IMG/VR virus record: IMGVR_UViG_3300025126_000016
Coordinates: 10,264-74,263 of that record
Strand: one strand, 5' to 3'
Source: a virus
Taxonomy: Duplodnaviria > Caudoviricetes
Length of the DNA stretch: 64,000 nt
Below, piece by piece: positions 1,185-45,818 of the stretch (positions are counted from its first letter, which is position 1; the number at the start of each line of letters is the position of its first letter). Both the position numbers and the translations under genes were made by a program. The notes below the pieces were generated by a model, which was not told the origin of the DNA, searched no databases, and saw only the letters and a program-made list of their open reading frames with translations.

Positions 1185-4100
1185 TACGAGCCACCTGTTG
1201 AATTAGTTTCTTAGTCACACCGCCCTTTAGCACATCATTACTGAATGTTGCAAGGACATCATTCGGTCCCATCGTAGGCTTCTCTTCAGGAGCCACGACG
1301 TACACGTTGACGGGAGGAGCAGCACTGGCCTGCATGATGTTCATCTGAGGACCGGCATCCTTGAGAGCGTGAGCGCCTCTGGCATTGATAGCGTCAAGGA
1401 AGCCCTTACCGATACTCTGAGCAGCGGGGCGACGGATTACATACTCACCTTGAGCCGCGTTAATAAGTGTGCTGTCCCGAGTAGGCAGACCACTGCTGAT
1501 GGAACCACCACCATAGTAGCCCTTTGGTTGCTTCGGAGCAGGGACTTCCCCGCCTCTCCAGAGACCCCACGAGGCCAAGCTATCAGTAGCACTACCGAAC
1601 TTTGAGGACAGTCCACTCATGTTAGGCCCACCAATGGCACCAGCCAGAATAGAGAAGAACTGGTTGGCCAGCGCGACAGCTACCATTTCGAGCATCGCAT
1701 CGATGATGGTTGCAGCCATGTTCTTGAAGGCACCGCCGAGGGTTACGGTCCCGCTGACAACATCGGAGAAGAAGCCCTTGAAAGAAGAATGAAGGGCACG
1801 AAGCGGCTGGTCAAGGTTCTTGATAAGCTCCTGACCTAGGCCATCTGCGGCACCAATCTCGAGCTTCATAGCTTCCAGAGCCATCCTCATTCCACCGCCG
1901 AAAGTCATCGGGACTTCTCGAAGCACTCCATAGCTTGCCATGAGTGCTGCGTTAGCATCGATCAGGTCTTCGGTTCTGGTGTCAATGTTGCCGAGTTCTT
2001 CTTCGATTCCTCTGAGCGTGATTCGGCTTTCTTCCAGTTGGCCTCTGACCACAATGGCTTCGCCCTCTTTCACACCTTCCTGTGCAACGAACTCTTCCAT
2101 TCGGCTGAGGTCTTGTTCGATACGGCGCTTCTGCTCTGCAACCTCGGCAGCAAGCTCGGTAAGCTGACGGATACGTTCTTCATTAGCAGCCACACTGGCA
2201 AACTGATTGTTTCTTTCAGCAATGTCAGAACGGTTCTGCACCACCGTCTTCATGTATTCAGGGGTGTTCTCATTCCCGAGAGGATTGTTCAGTCCTTGAA
2301 CACGAGCCTGTGCGATAGCAAGAGCTTGCTCTGTTGGTCGCATAGCCTGCTTGAAATCATCGTCGATAGCTTCAACGCTTGTATCGATGAAGTTCTTAAG
2401 CACAGCCGCGAGGGTATCAGCCATTCTCTTGACTTCTTCGACCCGCATCTGTTCGATCTTACGACCGGCGGTAGCCATCATTTTGGCTCGCTGTTCCCGA
2501 GAAGGGTTAAGAGCTTCAATCTGTTGCATGGATAGCTCGGCTTCGCCCGTCAGCCAGCTGTCAAGTTGATCGTCCAGATCATCCAGTACGTCAGGAAGGT
2601 CATCTAGCTTAGGTGCATTCTTGAAAGTATCAAGAGTATTATTGTATAGCTCCTGACGGTACTCAAGTTCTTCCTTCGCAATGCGAGCATCGATACGTTC
2701 TAGTTCTTCCTCTCTGCGACGAGCTTCTCGTTCGGCTTTGCTGGCTGCTCTTTCAGCATCTTTAGCAGCTTCCTTGTCAACCGGAGGAGCCATGCGGTTG
2801 CGAGCAGCACGGGTGCTGGCACGAGCCTGCTCAAGGAGCGTAGCGGCATAAGGATTGTCGGCAACCTCTGATTCAATCTCGTCGTAGCGACGTTCTCTTT
2901 GGGTAAACTGCGCCTCTAGCTGCGCTCGGTTCATTCCACCAGAGTTTCCCTGCGAGGCGGCACGAGTTGAACGACCCGTATCTTCCTGCATAGAACGGAT
3001 CAGTTCTTGACCCTGGTCCGTCAGGGCGAACTCGGCAGTTCCCAAGCGTTCTGTATAAAGATCAGTATCCTGTCTAGCTCTAGTATAGCTATCAAGCGCA
3101 GTAGTCAGGCTGGCATAAGTCGTAGGATAACGCTGCTGCAGGGCAGGGTTTTTAAGTAGTAGCGAGTGAGCCTGCTGAAGACTTGACGTAGTATTACTAC
3201 GCATTAGGGTCTGCAGTCTTTCAGTGTCCCTCACTAGTTGTGGATTTTCTCTACGAGTTCTCGGAGTAAAGCTTACTCTGCTATCCCTACTAAATTTTCC
3301 GCTTACTCCACCAAGTTCTTGCAGAGCATTCTTGCGTTCCATATCGGCCTGAGCCAGTGCGGTCTGGGCAAGATTACGTAGCGTTTCCTGAGCCTTGCGA
3401 TCAAGGTTCACCAGTGACTGAATGAGTCCTGCGATTCCGCCTTGAGTCTTACTGAACTCATCACGAAGACCGGGGAAGCGAGAAGAAAGCTGGCTAACCG
3501 CAGAAGAAACACCGGTGGTTGTTTCGTTGAGATTACCGTTTGCTCCTGCGAGTTCTTCCTCACGCATGATCAGCTTCTGAGTTTCATCACGAAGACTCAG
3601 CTGATCCATTTCGAGCGAGGCCATCTGGGCAGAGGTGTCCTTGAGAGCGGTGGTAACATCCCCCAAGCTGTCACCCATCTGTGCCGCCCGGACTGCTGCT
3701 TCTTCTGCGGAGTAGCCTGCCGCTTCGAAAGAAGCTGCTGCCTCTTTCAGACTCACGCTTGAGTAATTGGCTTCTTGAGTAAGCAGCCCGAAAGCCTTTA
3801 GAGGTCTAGTTATTAGCTCGGCAATTGCGCCGATTGAAACAACGATACCTTCAAGCAGTACTAGCAACAGCTTTAGCACGGGAATAAGATTCTCACCGAT
3901 CCCTGCTCCGAACTCAGCCATAGTGTTCCATAGGCGCTGCCAACGGGCTTCGAGTGAATCGACACGAACGGCAGCAGCTTCTTGTGCTGCCCCTTCCTTT
4001 TCAGAAAGGACTAGGAGACGTTCGGTGTTTTCAATGTTGCGGCTAGCGGCAACATATGCAGCGGCAGCACGAGTTTCCATAGCACCATAGGCTTCGAAAC

Positions 4101-5928
4101 CTGCTGAGCGAAGGCGGCGAAGAACTTCATTCAGCCCCAAAACCTTAACGTCGATATCCGAGGTGCTTAAACCAATTCTTTGAAGCTGATCGATTAGCTT
4201 CTGCGAAGGGTTCATAAGATCGACCAGCATCTGACGAAGACCTGTGGCAGCGGTCGAGCCTCTAACACCGGCGTCGGCCAGCGAGGCGGTCGTGGCAACG
4301 AGTTCTTCAATCGTTACGTTGTTGGCAGCAGCGGTGTTACCAAGGTACTGCAAAGATTGCTGAACTTGGCTAACGCCCAGCTTCGATTCGTTCAGTGTCG
4401 TAACCAAGATATCGGTCACACGGCTGGCTTCACTCGCAGACATCTGGAAGGCACCCAGGGCCGAGGTAAGAATGTCAACGGACTCGGCGGGAGTCGAGCC
4501 GGAAGCGGCAGAAAGATTAACGACGCTCTGTAGCATCATCTTAAGTTCTTCACCGGCGAAACCTGCCTGAGCGATAATAGTGGCTGACTTGGTAAGCTCC
4601 ATCACACTATCAGCACTGTTCTTCGAGACCTCGAAGATGCCTGCGCTCAGTCGTTCCATTTCGGTAGTCGTGGAAGCAGACACGGCTTGCAACTGAGCAA
4701 GAGCATCTTCAAACTGAATAGCAAAGCTGATACCCTGTTGGATGCTGGAAATCAGGCCATAGATGGCCCCTGCAGCGACAGCGTAACTGGCGACACGACC
4801 GACGAGGGCACCTGCTCCGTAGGCTCCCCCACCTTTTTCAGTAAGGAAGTTACCTGGAGCAGCCTTTATTCCTGAGAAGAAACCACCCTTATATTCAGGG
4901 GTCTTGGGTGCAGCACTCTGCTCCCGATTACGCATCGCAATCGTCTCACCAATCTCTCTCTGGAGAAGCTTGTAGCGAGCGATAAGCTGATCAATACGAG
5001 CAGCGTTCTGCTGTTCAACCGGCTTGGCTAGCTCGGCGTTAAGCTGTCTCTTGGCTGTGATCAGGAAGTTGGTTTGGTTGGCGAGGCGCTGCTGTGAGTC
5101 GGCGATGCGGCGATAAGCCGAAGCTTCCCCGATAAGCTCGCGGTTCTTGAGACTACGTTCACCCTTGCGAGTAGCATCCGCAAGCAGAGCTTCTCTCTGC
5201 AACCGGGAATTAGTCAGAATCTGACGACCCTCTTCGCGCAGGGCTTCAATATTCAGACGAGTCTTTGCTTCGATCTTTTCTCTGGCACGAAGCTGATCCC
5301 CCATTGCGCCGAGTGCTTGTCTGGTGCTAGCGATCTGAGTAGAGTAGTCAGTCTTGAAACCGCCAGTTGCAAATGCTTTGGCGTTGGCCTTATCCAGCCG
5401 CTCAAACTGGTCAAGCATAGGAGCGAAGGCCTTTTGACCATCGCGGCTAAGCATCTGGATACGAGTGCGATAGTCGTCCGCAGTTCTGCTTAACTTAGCG
5501 TAAGCTTGAGCATTGTTTTGTAGATTGGCGTAGGCTCTCTGGTGAAAATCAGTAACCTCAACGCCGCGACGAGCCATCTTACCAAAGCTGGTATCTAAGT
5601 CTCGGATACGACCGCGAAGAACATCCACGGAGCGACCGTACTGATTGGTGGCGTTTCCTAATTCTGCGTAGGCACGGGCACGTTTACCGAGGGCCTGCAG
5701 AGATTCGGCCCCACCCATTCTTCTATTGGCATTGAAATTGGCTACAGCATCCAAGTTCTTGGAGGTCATCGCCAATGTTTTAATCTGTTGGGCAGCGACA
5801 GCACCAGCCTTATTCATCTTAGCAATAGTGTTATCCAAGCGCTTGTTCAGAACAGACAGCGCGTTTTCCATCCCCTTCGGGGTTAAATTAATGCCTACTT
5901 GAGCATTGATTTCATTATTAGCTGCCAT
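1177..5928 (-). CDS. Tail tape measure protein
   Basis: 1583 aa, Ala-rich helical; TP901-type core (FEDALAQLQAVS...GSTAATGLRQML); C-terminal GGG...GEYVIR motif. Confidence 0.95.
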   Translation of the reverse strand: MAANNEINAQVGINLTPKGMENALSVLNKRLDNTIAKMNKAGAVAAQQIKTLAMTSKNLDAVANFNANRRMGGAESLQALGKRARAYAELGNATNQYGRSVDVLRGRIRDLDTSFGKMARRGVEVTDFHQRAYANLQNNAQAYAKLSRTADDYRTRIQMLSRDGQKAFAPMLDQFERLDKANAKAFATGGFKTDYSTQIASTRQALGAMGDQLRAREKIEAKTRLNIEALREEGRQILTNSRLQREALLADATRKGERSLKNRELIGEASAYRRIADSQQRLANQTNFLITAKRQLNAELAKPVEQQNAARIDQLIARYKLLQREIGETIAMRNREQSAAPKTPEYKGGFFSGIKAAPGNFLTEKGGGAYGAGALVGRVASYAVAAGAIYGLISSIQQGISFAIQFEDALAQLQAVSASTTTEMERLSAGIFEVSKNSADSVMELTKSATIIAQAGFAGEELKMMLQSVVNLSAASGSTPAESVDILTSALGAFQMSASEASRVTDILVTTLNESKLGVSQVQQSLQYLGNTAAANNVTIEELVATTASLADAGVRGSTAATGLRQMLVDLMNPSQKLIDQLQRIGLSTSDIDVKVLGLNEVLRRLRSAGFEAYGAMETRAAAAYVAASRNIENTERLLVLSEKEGAAQEAAAVRVDSLEARWQRLWNTMAEFGAGIGENLIPVLKLLLVLLEGIVVSIGAIAELITRPLKAFGLLTQEANYSSVSLKEAAASFEAAGYSAEEAAVRAAQMGDSLGDVTTALKDTSAQMASLEMDQLSLRDETQKLIMREEELAGANGNLNETTTGVSSAVSQLSSRFPGLRDEFSKTQGGIAGLIQSLVNLDRKAQETLRNLAQTALAQADMERKNALQELGGVSGKFSRDSRVSFTPRTRRENPQLVRDTERLQTLMRSNTTSSLQQAHSLLLKNPALQQRYPTTYASLTTALDSYTRARQDTDLYTERLGTAEFALTDQGQELIRSMQEDTGRSTRAASQGNSGGMNRAQLEAQFTQRERRYDEIESEVADNPYAATLLEQARASTRAARNRMAPPVDKEAAKDAERAASKAEREARRREEELERIDARIAKEELEYRQELYNNTLDTFKNAPKLDDLPDVLDDLDDQLDSWLTGEAELSMQQIEALNPSREQRAKMMATAGRKIEQMRVEEVKRMADTLAAVLKNFIDTSVEAIDDDFKQAMRPTEQALAIAQARVQGLNNPLGNENTPEYMKTVVQNRSDIAERNNQFASVAANEERIRQLTELAAEVAEQKRRIEQDLSRMEEFVAQEGVKEGEAIVVRGQLEESRITLRGIEEELGNIDTRTEDLIDANAALMASYGVLREVPMTFGGGMRMALEAMKLEIGAADGLGQELIKNLDQPLRALHSSFKGFFSDVVSGTVTLGGAFKNMAATIIDAMLEMVAVALANQFFSILAGAIGGPNMSGLSSKFGSATDSLASWGLWRGGEVPAPKQPKGYYGGGSISSGLPTRDSTLINAAQGEYVIRRPAAQSIGKGFLDAINARGAHALKDAGPQMNIMQASAAPPVNVYVVAPEEKPTMGPNDVLATFSNDVLKGGVTKKLIQQVARNG

Positions 5929-22160: not shown

Positions 22161-22985
22161 TCAGTTGTCAAGATACTGATTGGCTACAAAGCCCACTTTA
22201 TTTTTGTACTTGACCTTGTCCCAGCCCGGATAGATGTTGTGATCCAGTACCTGCACGTTGTATCCGACGTAGAGGTGGGTCAGAATCTTCGAGGTGTAGC
22301 TGGCTCGCTCACGAAGTCGTAGTCCATTCGCGGTGACTTTCGCTGTTCCTTCTGCGGGAGCCTTTTTGGTGGGCGTGGGAGTGGGGGACGAAACTGCGAC
22401 TTCGTTGACATACTTCTCCTTCATCTTTGCCATGAACTCGTCGAGGGCAGGGCCGGGGTCCTGCTTACGACCGGGTGCTACATCTTCGTGCCCGACGATA
22501 TCCTTGATGTCGTACTCGGCGCAAATGGCTGCGATCACTTCCTCGGTAGCCTCAAGCTGAGGGACCTTGTAGGTTTCCCAATGTGACAGACCATTGCGGT
22601 CGCCGTGGAAAATGTGCTCGGAAGGTACTGTAGTTCCAGCGTGGGTCTTGCCGTTTTTCAGCCAGCCCCAATTGTCGATTTCAATTCCGATGGAGAACGC
22701 GTTTACATTCTTGCGTCCATTGTAGTTCGAAGAACCTGCATGCCACGCCCGACGGTTGAAAGGCACGATCTGGTGGATCGATCCGTTACGTCCAGTCACG
22801 ACATGAGCGGATGCTCGGCTTGAGGCACGGCTCAGGTAAGAGGCGTCTCCCTCTCCATCTTCCCCTCCTGAGGCGGTGTAGTGAAGCACGATAATCTCGG
22901 GCTTGATTGTTCCACTGCTCACGTTCGGAGACTGGATGGAAGTGTCGACCTTTGGGTCGCTAAGCATGTGGTTCTGAATCTTCAT
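22161..22985 (-). CDS. Endolysin: N-acetylmuramoyl-L-alanine amidase (Amidase_2) with C-terminal SH3b domain
   Basis: IVLHYT, SAHVV, RAWHAG, SIGIEI, GHEDVAPGRKQDPG; SH3b LRLRE...GFVANQYL; likely start MKIQNH at 22985. Confidence 0.92.
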   Translation of the reverse strand: MKIQNHMLSDPKVDTSIQSPNVSSGTIKPEIIVLHYTASGGEDGEGDASYLSRASSRASAHVVTGRNGSIHQIVPFNRRAWHAGSSNYNGRKNVNAFSIGIEIDNWGWLKNGKTHAGTTVPSEHIFHGDRNGLSHWETYKVPQLEATEEVIAAICAEYDIKDIVGHEDVAPGRKQDPGPALDEFMAKMKEKYVNEVAVSSPTPTPTKKAPAEGTAKVTANGLRLRERASYTSKILTHLYVGYNVQVLDHNIYPGWDKVKYKNKVGFVANQYLDN

Positions 22986-22998
22986 GGGGGCCGATATA

Positions 22999-23264
22999 CT
23001 ACTCTTCTGACTTCGAGTCAATAATTCTAAGCAAACCGCCCATAGTTGCATCAAGCTTTTCATGTAATCGTTCCTCTCGGGGTTCTTCTGCTCTAAAAAT
23101 TGCTTGTGCCAGTACCATTGCTCCACCAGCCAATACGGCATCGTACCAAGTCTTCGGATCGGTATAAATCCAATAAGCCGTGAGGCGATTGCTGCCCACA
23201 TCGCAAAAGGTGACGCTAATGCGTGTACCACCTTTTCGGTTATCGGATGAAAGGCTCGACTCAT
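22999..23264 (-). pseudogene. Holin-like membrane protein split by a -1 frame discontinuity near 23185
   Basis: MSRAF...FAMWAAIA (frame A) joined to LTAYW...LHEKLD (frame B) gives a two-TM protein resembling Fet4/DUF1003-type proteins. Confidence 0.5.
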
Positions 23265-23335
23265 CGCATTTCCCTTGGGTTAACGTACTTGGCTCTGTAT
23301 CTGGCTCGATCCTTCAACAGTAACAGGAGTTAGGT

Positions 23336-23659
23336 TTGACTGACAGTGACGTAAAAGAATTAGCAAATGTAATATACCACGAGGCCCGAGGAGAGTCTAG
23401 GCAAGGCCAGATCGCTGTAGGGCAGGTTGTTATGAACCGCGTGGCCGATCCCAGATACCCGAACACGATCCGAGGGGTGATCTGGCAACCGAAACAGTTT
23501 TCGAATATGCGTTATCACGGCAATTGGAGACGCTGTGAGGGGGTCGCTCGGGAGGTTTTGAGCGGCGAATGCGAAGCAGTGGTCGGAAATTCGTTGAGTT
23601 TTCGGTCATTTCGGCCCAAAAATTACCGATATCGGGTCGGAAATCACTATTTTTTCTGA
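23336..23659 (+). CDS. SleB-like cell wall hydrolase (Hydrolase_2)
   Basis: LANVIYHEARGE, VGQVVMNRV, YPNTIRGVIWQPKQFS, VGNHYF motifs; TTG start with AGGAG. Confidence 0.9.
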   Translation: MTDSDVKELANVIYHEARGESRQGQIAVGQVVMNRVADPRYPNTIRGVIWQPKQFSNMRYHGNWRRCEGVAREVLSGECEAVVGNSLSFRSFRPKNYRYRVGNHYFF

Positions 23660-23673
23660 TTTTCAACAATTTA

Positions 23674-23713
23674 GGCCCTAATGACGCGTGTATTGGTCAT
23701 TAGGGCCTTTTTT
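23674..23713 (+). terminator. Intrinsic terminator between convergent sleB-like gene and tRNA cluster
   Basis: 12-bp stem GGCCCTAATGAC/GTCATTAGGGCC plus T-tract. Confidence 0.75.
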
Positions 23714-23801
23714 GACTCATGCATGAGTCAATGTTCCCGTTCGGGGTAATTTTAGGGGTTTGGGCCTGAATCTGGCTCTTTTGTTCCCGTTCGGGAAAAA
23801 T

Positions 23802-23887
23802 TGGTGCGTCTGGGAGGACTCGAACCTCCAAAGGTATCTGTGTTTGAAACAGTGCCGTATTCCAGTTCCGACTTAGCCCACAGACGC
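23802..23887 (-). tRNA. trnL: tRNA-Leu(CAA), expanded D region and shortened variable arm
   Basis: GCGTCTG/CAGACGC acceptor, A73-CCA, loop TTCAAAC, T-arm GGAGG-TTCGAGT-CCTCC. Confidence 0.8.
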
Positions 23888-23892
23888 GAAAA

Positions 23893-23978
23893 TGGTAGGA
23901 GCGGCGAGACTCGAACTCGCAAAGGTCACCGCTTCTAAGGCGGCGGGGTATTCCATTTTCCACTTAGCCCACGCTCCC
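23893..23978 (-). tRNA. trnL: tRNA-Leu(TAG), expanded D region and shortened variable arm
   Basis: GGGAGCG/CGCTCCT acceptor, loop CTTAGAA, A73-CCA. Confidence 0.85.
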
Positions 23979-23992
23979 ACATGGTTTTGGAT

Positions 23993-24077
23993 TGGTCCGT
24001 GGGTGTGGACTCGAACCACTCCCGTTTCCGGTCACGTTTTACAGACGATCTGCTGGAACCCCCAGCTTTACCCACGG
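23993..24077 (-). tRNA. trnY: tRNA-Tyr(GTA), atypical (C1-G72)
   Basis: CCGTGGG/CCCACGG acceptor, loop CTGTAAA, variable stem CCG-GAAA-CGG, A73-CCA. Confidence 0.75.
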
Positions 24078-24081
24078 ATTT

Positions 24082-24172
24082 TGGAGGAAGCAGCTGGTCC
24101 CTATCCAGATGCCATATCTCAGGCACGTACGGATTAGCAATCCGTCCCAGACAGGTGTCTGGTTCTGCTTCC
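24082..24172 (-). tRNA. trnS: tRNA-Ser(GCT), atypical T-loop and D-arm
   Basis: GGAAGCA/TGCTTCC acceptor, ACGGA-TTGCTAA-TCCGT anticodon arm, long variable arm, T-loop ATAGGGA, U73-CCA. Confidence 0.7.
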
Positions 24173-24182
24173 GTGTCAATGT

Positions 24183-24239
24183 TGGAGGAGGGTAGAGGAA
24201 TCGAACCCCTAGGGATTTCAAGACCCGTTTGCACCCTCC
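24183..24239 (-). tRNA. 57-nt tRNA-Ser(TGA)-like RNA lacking D-arm and variable arm
   Basis: GGAGGGT/ACCCTCC acceptor, loop CTTGAAA, T-arm AGGGG-TTCGATT-CCTCT, U73-CCA; only about 5 nt between acceptor and anticodon stems. Confidence 0.75.
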
Positions 24240-24264
24240 TTCGAGGGCAGACACATGCCCTCGG

Positions 24265-24318
24265 TCAGTCTAGGAGACTGAGTCGATAGGACGATAAAGG
24301 TGACAGGTTGTTTCTCAT
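24265..24318 (-). CDS. Leader peptide MRNNLSPLSSYRLSLLD (candidate attenuator uORF, probably leaderless)
   Basis: 17 codons, 10 Leu/Ser/Tyr; ATG 5 nt after the -10 box; stop 25 nt before the Ser/Ser/Tyr/Leu/Leu tRNA run. Confidence 0.7.
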   Translation of the reverse strand: MRNNLSPLSSYRLSLLD

Positions 24319-24323
24319 GGGGG

Positions 24324-24352
24324 TCAATTAGACGTTGATGGTTTCGTTGTCA
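24324..24352 (-). promoter_or_regulatory. Sigma70-like promoter for leader plus class II tRNA operon
   Basis: TTGACA-17 nt-TAATTG on minus strand, predicted +1 at or next to the leader AUG. Confidence 0.65.
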
Positions 24353-24849
24353 AGAGGGTACTTGACTGGTGTGCTTGGAATCCGCTTGATCCTCAAGGAC
24401 AGGAGCTTGACTAGGCGACTGAGCCAGTATCTCGATTCCAGTTCTTCCACGGTTACTCGGCGACGGGCAGCTTCCATGATGGTGTACCGTCTGTCTCCTA
24501 CCCAATAGCATTCTGCTGCGTGACCGAAGAGGTCGAAGTCATCAGAGTCCACCTTGCGAACGAAGACTGCACTCAGTCCCCAAGCAAGTAGCCCCAGTGC
24601 CGGATGCACGAACAGGGCAATGATCAATGCAGGGATAAAGCCGGGCACCCAAGTGATCCAGCTTTCGAAAATCTCATGGGCTGCGGTAGCCTGCCTGTCT
24701 TGGTTTCTTTCTCGGAACCAGTCCTCGTCTGCCAGCCAGAACCAGAATGGGTTGTTCGTACCCGAGGCTCCTTGGCGAAACTTGAATGGCCAGATGCCAA
24801 GCATTGGGCCGATGAGGAGGATGAAGGCAGTGAGGAAGAAATATGTCAT
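24328..24849 (-). CDS. Membrane protein
   Basis: Start MTYFFL; N-terminal and central hydrophobic segments. Confidence 0.6.
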   Translation of the reverse strand: MTYFFLTAFILLIGPMLGIWPFKFRQGASGTNNPFWFWLADEDWFRERNQDRQATAAHEIFESWITWVPGFIPALIIALFVHPALGLLAWGLSAVFVRKVDSDDFDLFGHAAECYWVGDRRYTIMEAARRRVTVEELESRYWLSRLVKLLSLRIKRIPSTPVKYPLDNETINV

Positions 24850-24902
24850 GAGCGCCTTATACCACTCAATATGCGATCTGCCAATAGGGGTGATTTTTGT
24901 AT

Positions 24903-24960
24903 CAAGTTGCAAACTTATTATATTTTTTTACTTTTCCTAGAGACTCTAAAATATATAATA
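24903..24960 (+). repeat. AT-rich 58-bp element, copy 1 of 3
   Basis: CAAGTTGCAAACTTATTATATTTT...GAGACTCTAAAATATATAATA; recurs at 28199 and 48427. Confidence 0.85.
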
Positions 24961-25074
24961 GAACCTAAATGTCATTCATCCTGAGTCAAGGTAAAGATGC
25001 TAAGGACTGATTTCCCGAGGCGTTTCCTTTCCGCCTTGAAGACCCAGAGACAATTGCGTGTCCTCTTTGGGTGT

Positions 25075-25160
25075 GAGAGCCAGGTCCAGATGCCTAAGGT
25101 CTTTTCGTCTTCACCTTGAGGTTGACACTGACACTGACACTGACACTGGACCTGGCTCTC
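25075..25160. repeat. 15-bp inverted repeat enclosing a (TGACAC)4 tandem repeat
   Basis: GAGAGCCAGGTCCAG 25075-25089 / CTGGACCTGGCTCTC 25146-25160; tandem 25123-25148. Confidence 0.85.
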
Positions 25161-25289
25161 CTCGATACGCAATCACATATATGCTGTGATGTATTTTCAG
25201 ATTTTCCAAAAATTATAATAAATCGGGACCTACCCCAGTATTGCGGGCGCACGCCTACGCGCACGCGAAAGGGTCCTACCCTTTCCCTT

Positions 25290-25645
25290 TATTTTTCAAC
25301 GACTTACGAGCAGAACCAGACCCACAGCCCGGCTAAGCCACTGAAAACAAAGGAGAAAACAAGACTTTACGGGGCAACCGCCGGTCAGCGCCACCAGAGG
25401 CAGAAAAGAAAAGCCTTATTTATCAATAGCTTACGCCTTTCGTTCATCTTGACCACGGCGAATTATGAACAGAAAAAAGCGTTTGTTTTCAGAGGCTTAT
25501 CATCGTTCATAAAACTCTAGGTTTTCCTGAACAGAATTAAAAGCGTTTGTTTTCAGAGGCTTAGAAGAGGGGCAATTACTGAACGGATTAAGGGAAAGCG
25601 TTCACTAACCCCAAAGAAAAATCAATGAAAACAAGCACTTGTCGA
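25290..25645. promoter_or_regulatory. Cluster of IHF-like sites with 25-bp direct repeat; candidate genome end/packaging region
   Basis: TATCAATAGCTTA (25421) fits WATCAANNNNTTR; variants near 25293, 25334 (minus), 25487, 25551, 25629; AAAAGCGTTTGTTTTCAGAGGCTTA at 25475 and 25539. Confidence 0.5.
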
Positions 25646-43743: not shown

Positions 43744-43914
43744 ATGAAGTTTGTTCTAGTCTGTGTCGCAGAAGAAGATGAAACCGGTCACGTTACCCAT
43801 GTACAGGACAGCGGAGGTTACGGTTACATGCTCTCAAACGGAGACGTTCTCGAAATCGACCTAGCCAAGGGTGAAAGTATCGACATCATTCATAGTGACG
43901 AAGAAGTAAATTAA
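43744..43914 (+). CDS. Small acidic protein (56 aa) ending 1 nt before tRNA-Thr
   Basis: MKFVLVCVAEEDETG...DEEVN, AAGGAAAT RBS. Confidence 0.65.
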   Translation: MKFVLVCVAEEDETGHVTHVQDSGGYGYMLSNGDVLEIDLAKGESIDIIHSDEEVN

Positions 43915-43915
43915 C

Positions 43916-43991
43916 GCCGGATTAGCTCAGATGGCAGAGCAGCTGATTTGTAACCAGAAGGTCGTGGGTTCGATGCCTACATCCGGCACCA
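43916..43991 (+). tRNA. trnT: tRNA-Thr(TGT)
   Basis: Canonical cloverleaf, loop TTTGTAA, CCA. Confidence 0.93.
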
Positions 43992-44240: not shown

Positions 44241-44313
44241 GCGGGTGTGGCTATGCTAGCCAGCTGGCCTTCCAAGCCATGCCAAGAGGGTTGGATTCCC
44301 TCCATCCGCTCCA
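44241..44313 (+). tRNA. trnG: tRNA-Gly(TCC), reduced D-loop
   Basis: Loop CTTCCAA, U73-CCA; D-arm GGCTA-TGC-TAGCC; T-loop TTGGATT. Confidence 0.8.
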
Positions 44314-44530: not shown

Positions 44531-44559
44531 TTGACACCTAAAAAGACCTCGTCTATATG
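44531..44559 (+). promoter_or_regulatory. Sigma70-like promoter for leader plus Met/Asn/Pro/Trp/His tRNA operon
   Basis: TTGACA-17 nt-TATATG preceded by an AT-rich tract. Confidence 0.78.
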
Positions 44560-44635
44560 ACCCTCCACGGGCCGAGGGGATTCCCATCTCCTTAATGCGG
44601 TTTAACCACCCTCGGCCCACCTATTGGAGTTAGAA

Positions 44636-44722
44636 ATGCGTTACATGAATGTAAATCATTGGCGACCCAATACACACGCATGGGTGCGACATCCCATGCG
44701 TGAACAAGCTGTCGGCGGCTAA
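44636..44722 (+). CDS. Leader peptide MRYMNVNHWRPNTHAWVRHPMREQAVGG (candidate attenuator uORF)
   Basis: GGAG RBS at 44626; 28 codons, 13 Met/Asn/His/Trp/Pro; stop inside hairpin 22 nt before tRNA-Met. Confidence 0.7.
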   Translation: MRYMNVNHWRPNTHAWVRHPMREQAVGG

Positions 44723-44744
44723 CTAACTCCCGCCGATACTCTGT

Positions 44745-45386: not shown

Positions 45387-45545
45387 ATGAAACACGTTCT
45401 GATCCTGAACCCGAGTGAGGACGGGAGCTACGTCGGGGAGGCTAAGGTGCCTCTGGATAATCCCGCAGGTTTCAATGTCTCTCTGAAAGTGTGCAAGGCC
45501 ACGAAGAAAGCTATCGTGGTGTTAGACGAGAAGGTGAACCGGTGA
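45387..45545 (+). CDS. Hypothetical protein (52 aa)
   Basis: MKHVLILNPSEDG..., AAAGGA RBS. Confidence 0.65.
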   Translation: MKHVLILNPSEDGSYVGEAKVPLDNPAGFNVSLKVCKATKKAIVVLDEKVNR

Positions 45546-45818
45546 TGTTCATAATCGCAACTGACGATCTTGAGTATTACATCCCTTGGTCCCGCAAAAC
45601 TTGTGGACACACAGCCGTAGATGTGGCAAAGAAAGGTAGCCGGGGGCAACGTGCCTCGGCTATTTGATAATGAGCTTAGTGCAAAACTGGCTCTAGGCAA
45701 GTGGCTGTCTGGGCCACTCAGAGGAGTCTTTGAGGAAGACTACGGATGGTACCCTGAATCTGACACTGACCCCAATCGAAAGATAGAATGGGAGGGCAAG
45801 CTTGCCCCCGAGAAATAG
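45545..45818 (+). pseudogene. Small phage protein interrupted by two apparent +1 indels
   Basis: MFIIATDDL / SYYIPWSRKTCGHT / GGNVPRLFDNELSAKLALGKWLSG lie in three successive frames. Confidence 0.4.

Follow-up and report, generated by a model that had tools for sequence, protein, structure and literature searches.

The stretch analysed in this work, referred to here as the window, comprises 64,000 nucleotides of a virus of the class Caudoviricetes (IMG/VR record IMGVR_UViG_3300025126_000016). On its minus strand, flanked by an open reading frame (ORF) of 194 amino acids (24912-24328) and a convergent cell-wall hydrolase gene (23336-23659), a short leader ORF is followed by a block of five tRNA-like genes for serine, serine, tyrosine, leucine and leucine. 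The present work is concerned with this leader ORF, whose codons correspond in their composition to the tRNAs behind it, and with the possibility that it allows translating ribosomes to sense how well the cognate codons are being decoded.

The leader ORF (24265-24318, minus strand) consists of 17 codons followed by TGA, with its ATG at 24318-24316 and its stop at 24267-24265. Of its 16 non-initiator codons, 10 specify Leu, Ser or Tyr, and these matched codons fill nearly all of the last ten positions of the ORF. It is preceded by a putative promoter on the same strand, made up of a -35 hexamer TTGACA (24348-24353) and, after a 17-nt spacer, a weak -10 element TAATTG (24325-24330). Both the promoter and the ORF had been described in an initial annotation of this DNA, and the ORF is present as described there; the promoter hexamers and their spacing are also present, but the ATG lies 6 nt rather than 5 nt downstream, and the -10 element agrees with TATAAT at only two of six positions, as a result of which it is absent from the listing of our promoter scan. 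Because the ATG is only 6 nt past the -10 element, the leader transcript is probably leaderless, and no Shine-Dalgarno sequence was found ahead of the ORF. At the 3′ end of the leader two hairpins, which the initial annotation had placed at the same positions and without a U-tract, were borne out by RNAfold predictions. Hairpin 1 (7 bp; 24265-24281, minus strand) takes in the five final sense codons together with the stop, whereas hairpin 2 (8 bp; 24242-24263, minus strand) begins 2 nt past the stop and ends 2 nt ahead of the first tRNA-like gene. The 79-nt leader of the window folds more stably than its shuffled versions (z of -3.3, with none of 200 shuffles equalling it), and fold z values for leader RNAs against shuffles were -3.3, -2.4, -3.3 and -3.9, with one further leader at -0.8.

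The enrichment of the window leader in Leu, Ser and Tyr codons (10/16) has a binomial probability of 8e-4, close to the value of about 1e-3 that had been estimated earlier. When all ATG-initiated ORFs of 12-40 codons in the six frames of the window were used as a background (n = 422), only two of them reached 62.5% Leu/Ser/Tyr, the leader being one of these. By a hand count under strict wobble, the five anticodons of the block can read 7 of the leader's 10 Leu/Ser/Tyr codons. As this does not exceed the proportion of Leu/Ser/Tyr codons that these anticodons cover, the match between the leader and the tRNAs is at the level of amino acids, and matching at the level of codons (anticodons) was rejected, the count for the window ORF being no better than amino-acid-level matching.

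Homologous loci were gathered by means of the terminase, by a scan of metagenomes with the neighbouring hydrolase, and by protein searches combined with contig look-ups, and the examination of related genomes that the initial annotation had proposed could thereby be carried out. Nine distinct loci, the window and eight others, were obtained, and enrichment in Leu/Ser/Tyr is kept in all of them. Every locus contains an ATG-initiated ORF of 13-18 codons (13-17 after the ATG) that terminates in TGA and consists of Leu/Ser/Tyr codons to the extent of 54-79%, with counts from 7/13 to 12/16. A hairpin is likewise found in each case at or over the stop codon, which is located either in the 5′ arm or at most 2 nt before it, and the end of the stem lies 0-5 nt before tRNA-Ser(UGA). 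The arrangement TTGAC[AT]-17-TAnnnn-6/7 nt-ATG is retained in eight of the nine loci (seven of the eight further ones), with TTGACT in one locus, and the -10 element of two homologues matches at five of six positions. As this spacing has been kept in spite of flanking sequences that are otherwise dissimilar among the loci, it points to a real promoter from which the transcript starts at or next to the ATG. An automatic alignment of the hairpins was set aside, since it misplaced one arm and contained only one compensated pair, and the loci were folded separately instead.

The changes that have occurred within the ORF are also informative. In a codon alignment, the synonymous share of pairwise codon differences is 34% in the leader frame but 14% and 11% when the two alternative frames are read, which speaks in favour of translation of the leader frame. 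An invariant serine column is encoded by TCC, AGT, TCA and TCG in different loci, which involves switches between TCN and AGY codons, and the leucine columns make use of TTA, CTT and CTA. Many of the replacements stay inside the Leu/Ser/Tyr set, while both length and sequence are freely variable at either end of the peptide. The synonymous changes together with these composition-keeping replacements indicate that selection acts on what is decoded and not on the sequence of the peptide, as regulatory codons would lead one to expect. Where the tRNA block is absent beside the conserved hydrolase gene, as in the relatives G002 (locus L148) and L367, the leader is absent too. Codon 12 of the window leader (24285-24283), just ahead of hairpin 1, is the sole Arg codon inside the Leu/Ser/Tyr run, and in all seven loci possessing this Arg codon it is CGA, which may be either a programmed slow codon or a structural constraint.

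Leaders of matching composition were also observed before other tRNA blocks. A second one is found in the window itself (44531-44744, plus strand), where a TTGACA-17-TATATG promoter is followed by a structured 5′ untranslated region (UTR) with a 10-bp hairpin and by a 28-codon ORF (44636-44722). In this ORF, 12 of 27 codons specify Met, Asn, Pro, Trp or His, which correspond to the five tRNAs behind it, and a hairpin around its stop ends at the tRNA-Met (44745), with the same geometry of stop codon and 5′ arm. The 5′ UTR of this leader contains in addition a 12-codon ORF (44595-44633, plus strand) in which 5 of 11 codons are Asn/His/Pro/Trp; it is one of only two small ORFs of the window above threshold and could be either a tandem leader or a chance occurrence. 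In the relative G002, a near-leaderless ORF of 29 codons (L151, 5473-5384, minus strand) draws 26 of its 28 codons from the amino acids of the nine downstream tRNAs (Glu, Ile, Val, Arg, Phe, Thr, Ala, Gly, and Gln). Ser, Leu and Tyr tRNAs are all missing from this relative, and so is a Ser/Leu/Tyr leader. The binomial probabilities for four leaders ranged from 8e-4 to 1.5e-5. When leaders were compared in a cross table with the amino acid sets of different blocks, six of seven gave probabilities of 8e-4 to 2e-6 with their own block and the sets of other blocks were not significant; the leader of a relative's Met/Asn/Pro/Trp block was significant in neither respect, its own-block probability being only 0.14.

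The same relationship was seen in unrelated phages. When the tRNA runs of unrelated phage contigs were screened blind, the top candidates were three leaders from the contig L047 and one from the contig L078, all four of which have a hairpin with a U-tract ahead of the tRNAs. Masked folding in L047 produced a terminator with the ribosome at the stop codon and an antiterminator with the ribosome stalled upstream. When the amino acid sets were swapped among 52 tRNA runs, seven runs had p<0.01 against 1.25 expected, and none of 500 shuffles reached seven. Two other candidates from the general screen (L058 and L129) were found on inspection not to be leaders.

Of the five tRNA-like genes of the block, all on the minus strand, the first (t1, 24183-24239) is a relic of 57 nt of a tRNA-Ser(UGA), in which the acceptor stem, the T arm, the anticodon loop and CCA are still present but the D arm and variable arm are lacking. 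In comparison with the full 91-nt tRNA-Ser(UGA) of the closest relative, L369, it has undergone two internal deletions, and its anticodon stem is weakened by two changes; it may be a pseudogene or a minihelix retained for another use. It is followed by a tRNA-Ser(GCU) (t2, 24082-24172), which combines a D stem of 6 bp and its 4-nt loop with a long variable arm and a T loop lacking the usual TTCRA, and by a tRNA-Tyr(GUA) (t3, 23993-24077), whose variable arm is likewise long and whose acceptor contains a C1:G72 pair. Both of these fold as cloverleaves and have recognised homologues; t2 was called by ARAGORN in mitochondrial mode only, its homologues being called as Ser-GCT. The last two genes, tRNA-Leu(UAG) (t4, 23893-23978; 34.6 bits with the Rfam tRNA model) and tRNA-Leu(CAA) (t5, 23802-23887; 30.5 bits), are alike in their long D region and short variable region, and they are the only two of the five that pass the Rfam model. 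In its non-mitochondrial mode ARAGORN called none of the five. Thus, of the five tRNAs described initially, five tRNA-like genes are indeed present, but the first of them is reduced to a relic. A pattern search based on the D region of the Leu tRNAs found no relative, nor did one based on the acceptor of the tRNA-Tyr, whose matches were mostly due to chance. In one homologous block (L163, about 2970-2500, minus strand) an ORF with a LAGLIDADG-like motif, as judged by eye, is located between the tRNA-Ser(GCU) and the tRNA-Tyr.

A number of other features were noted around the tRNA genes of this clade. An extra tRNA at 44241-44310 (plus strand), which scores 31.8 bits with the Rfam model, was missed by ARAGORN, and its anticodon loop suggests by eye a Gly(UCC) identity. 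The stop codon of a 56-amino-acid ORF (43745-43916, plus strand) abuts the first base of a tRNA-Thr, a similar small protein gene is located behind the tRNA-His (45388-45546, plus strand), and in the relative G002 too ORFs abut or overlap the 5′ ends of tRNAs. In the latter genome about 16 tRNAs form a block at the head of which stands a permuted tmRNA (L151, 6029-6344, minus strand; Rfam 100.7 bits). Directly past the tRNA block of the window, the 13-nt word CCCGAACGGGAAC is present in two copies (23732-23795, minus strand), and words similar to it occur at the matching place in G002 (L148, about 5230-5290).

The 74-kb record of which the window is a part has an estimated completeness of 88%, and the proteins of the window include a large terminase, portal, major head protein, primase, a rIIA-like protein and an amidase. 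The 194-amino-acid ORF upstream of the leader (24328-24912, minus strand) has no match in PHROG, and no relative was found when its protein was used as a query in viral contigs; its homologue in L369 terminates just ahead of the -35 hexamer. In the window, the -35 hexamer is in the last codons of this ORF and its stop codon TAA is inside the -10 element, and therefore read-through transcripts may also enter the leader. Based upon the large terminase, the cultured relatives are Caulobacter phage Seuss, Pseudoalteromonas phage KB12-38, Achromobacter phage JWF, Acinetobacter phage fJoAci04, and Xylophilus phage Lumi, but these five have only 0-1 tRNA genes and hence none of them is a laboratory model for this locus. 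An 85-kb contig (L368; NCBI GCA_002686575.1, contig NYXW01000001.1) matches the relative G001 over the 1.2-kb stretch that was compared. The metagenome-assembled genome containing it carries the label Flavobacteriaceae, which is probably a binning artefact, as the promoters observed here are not of the Bacteroidota type.

How the reading of the leader could affect the tRNAs was examined by folding. In minimum-energy folds for four loci the body of the ORF paired with the 5′ strand of tRNA-Ser, but codon-shuffled ORFs did so equally (p 0.20-0.95) and there was no preference for the own partner; this pairing was hence rejected as an effect of composition. The initial annotation had suggested that the 3′ arm of the second hairpin can instead pair with the 5′ strand of the first tRNA. 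With a ribosome masked at the stop codon, the acceptor stem was lost in three of four loci, the locus of the window not being among them; however, with the hairpin randomised, two of those three loci lost the acceptor stem anyway in more than half of the trials, so that the pairing is not specific. Such a switch was also not seen for the leaders before other blocks, and it is retained here as a weak possibility. A C-rich, G-poor character of the leader had likewise been described as resembling a rut site. The Ser/Leu/Tyr leader ORFs do contain 24-31% C and 10-17% G, whereas in the leaders before other blocks C is about equal to or below G. As Ser, Leu and Tyr codons give rise to this make-up in any case, it lends no support to an involvement of Rho, which is nevertheless conceivable. 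The cleavage of tRNAs by a defence nuclease, which had been put forward as a trigger, could be one of several causes of stalling, and no observation favours an anticodon nuclease over a general tuning of supply to demand.

In view of these comparisons, we consider that the leader ORF is most likely a conserved, composition-matched sensor of cognate decoding, acting in cis and based on the ribosome, and we hold this reading with somewhat better than even confidence. The sensing half of this proposal is well supported, but its output half is not, and several observations weigh against the whole. We infer both the translation of the ORF and its start site from sequence, and the -10 element of the window is poor. 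The nine loci share ancestry and do not represent nine independent trials, and one of them, L370, departs from the others in that it has no leaderless promoter, contains only 7 of 13 matched codons and has a terminator upstream of the ORF. In this locus the U-tract terminator (about 3950-4050, minus strand) separates a TTGACA-17-TATCTG motif from the leader ORF, and the locus may represent a different wiring or a decaying copy. Since genes abut tRNAs elsewhere in the clade, the spacing of 0-5 nt between hairpin and tRNA could reflect compaction. A gate formed by the hairpin would act directly on only the first tRNA, which here is a relic. Further, although ordinary U-tract terminators are used elsewhere by this phage, no more than two T residues are present in the 8 nt past the hairpin in any of the nine loci and the terminator scan lists none there; neither an antiterminator nor any competing helix was found in free or masked folds, which contained two independent hairpins. 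With both of these elements lacking, any link between stalling and output, and its sign as well, is conjectural.

The latter results bear most directly on the possibility that the leader is a classical attenuator with an intrinsic terminator, as in the amino-acid operons and in L047. Its layout of a promoter, a short ORF of regulatory codons and a hairpin at the stop would fit such a system, and the class is present in other phages, but in the absence of a U-tract and a competing helix classical attenuation is excluded in this clade, the description of the leader as an attenuator in the strict sense is not borne out, and this explanation is accorded very little probability. A leader that works without transcriptional control is a different matter. 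In this case the hairpin, which reaches from the stop codon as far as the RNase P site on the first tRNA, would be held open by ribosomes on the terminal Ser/Leu codons, and the 5′ maturation or survival of the precursor, in place of its synthesis, would be adjusted to decoding capacity; we regard this as possible, if rather unlikely. It could also be that the ORF is translated constitutively, merely to cover the start of the tRNA transcript against Rho or nucleases, and that no tRNA is sensed. The leaderless layout without terminator or antiterminator is consistent with this, as is the fact that elsewhere in the clade protein genes run up to or into the 5′ ends of tRNAs, so that translation beside tRNAs is common there. 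However, mere covering leaves unexplained why composition tracks the block in three leaders and in unrelated phages and why replacements stay within Leu/Ser/Tyr, and it seems to us unlikely.

The conservation within the ORF admits of two other explanations. A conserved core of about eight residues, which seven of the nine loci share and which includes the invariant Arg codon CGA, could belong to a functional Ser/Leu/Tyr-rich peptide whose place before the tRNAs is incidental; yet the ends of this peptide vary freely while its composition is kept, unrelated peptides at other tRNA blocks mirror those blocks, and where there is no block there is no ORF, which together render a functional peptide quite improbable. 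Conversely, the ORF might have arisen by chance in a conserved non-coding leader RNA of which only the promoter and hairpins are functional. It is short and lacks a Shine-Dalgarno sequence, and its CGA CTC AGY stretch, located within hairpin 1, is invariant at the nucleotide level. Against this, all nine loci retain an uninterrupted frame from ATG to TGA, the excess of synonymous changes is confined to this frame, the enrichment is matched by so few small ORFs (2/422), and independent matched leaders exist elsewhere; a chance ORF is thus scarcely to be expected.

If the leader is a ribosome-based sensor, its working may be envisaged as follows. The short ORF would be translated, likely from a leaderless transcript of the TTGACA-17-TAnnnn promoter, and would report the speed at which Ser, Leu and Tyr codons are read. 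When the cognate charged tRNAs are scarce, the ribosome would dwell on these codons, the hairpin region would be altered, and more mature tRNA would result; under fast decoding the ribosome would depart and the yield of tRNA would drop. The net effect would be a supply-and-demand loop for the phage set of long-arm (class II) tRNAs. As to the effector, we rank first a gate in which the hairpin acts on the 5′ processing or stability of the precursor and is opened by a ribosome at the last codons, and second a shielding of the short leader RNA from Rho by the ribosome. The feature that has been conserved is the geometry, with regulatory codons in the last ten positions, a stop codon within the 5′ arm of the hairpin, and a stem that ends where the 5′ end of the tRNA is processed.

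Such a system would share a number of features with known leader peptides. The attenuators of amino-acid operons (trpL, hisL, leuL, pheL, and ilvGMEDA) are similar in having a promoter-proximal short ORF, cognate codons and hairpins where the ORF ends, and several amino acids are sensed at once by the multivalent ilvGMEDA leader, as they would be by the present one. However, these attenuators control enzymes, whereas the leader described here precedes tRNAs, is probably leaderless, and has neither a U-tract terminator nor an antiterminator in its clade. In cat, cmlA and erm, drug-induced stalling of a ribosome involves a single hairpin that hides a ribosome-binding site. The likeness to these genes is that the 3′ end of the leader overlaps the 5′ arm of a hairpin placed against the functional start of the next gene, so that a ribosome halted on the leader would open this hairpin; in the present case the hairpin lies against the 5′ processing site of a tRNA and stalling would come from scarce tRNAs. 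T-box riboswitches also tie expression to particular tRNAs, but they do so by direct tRNA binding and need no ORF, and no T-box match was obtained with Rfam at E up to 1 within 22500-25500. Rho-dependent control by leader peptides is known from the mgtL/mgtP leaders of Salmonella (PMC3641672). In these, as in tnaC, whether transcription goes on depends on a short ORF being translated and no intrinsic terminator adjoins the ORF, but a rut site at the present locus is indistinguishable from codon composition, and our proposal does not require the nascent peptide to sense a free amino acid. From mycobacteria, leaderless polycysteine short ORFs are reported to act as cysteine-responsive attenuators (bioRxiv 10.1101/834739). 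These ORFs resemble the present one in that a leaderless ORF of regulatory codons stands at the head of an operon, and they differ in that they control protein genes, whereas the genes downstream of our leader encode untranslated RNAs. As these genes are not translated, the output here must be transcription, processing or stability.

Similar in principle, too, are the leaders of L047 and L078, in which likewise the composition of the ORF mirrors its own tRNA block, each block has one leader, and the leader is often right behind the promoter. They differ from the leaders of the window's clade in having a U-tract terminator (and in L047 also an antiterminator), neither of which is present in this clade, where the promoters are of the TTGACA/TAnnnn type. 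The same sensing idea thus appears to be coupled to a different output in the lineage of the window, which adds to these systems a lineage in which the promoters are of the sigma-70 type, the start is leaderless and a terminator is lacking. While leader-peptide attenuation is a known principle, its use in the control of tRNA genes would be new, and a full-text search of the literature found no paper on leader peptides ahead of tRNA genes.

The tRNAs of phages are usually viewed as supplements for codon usage or as substitutes for host tRNAs that are lost in infection, and to our knowledge almost nothing is known about how their expression is set. Leaders of this kind offer compact parts for codon-specific sensors. 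If the present proposal is correct, leader-peptide control would extend from the enzymes of amino acid metabolism to adaptor RNAs, and phages would gauge decoding capacity with the ribosome itself, adjusting each block of tRNAs separately.

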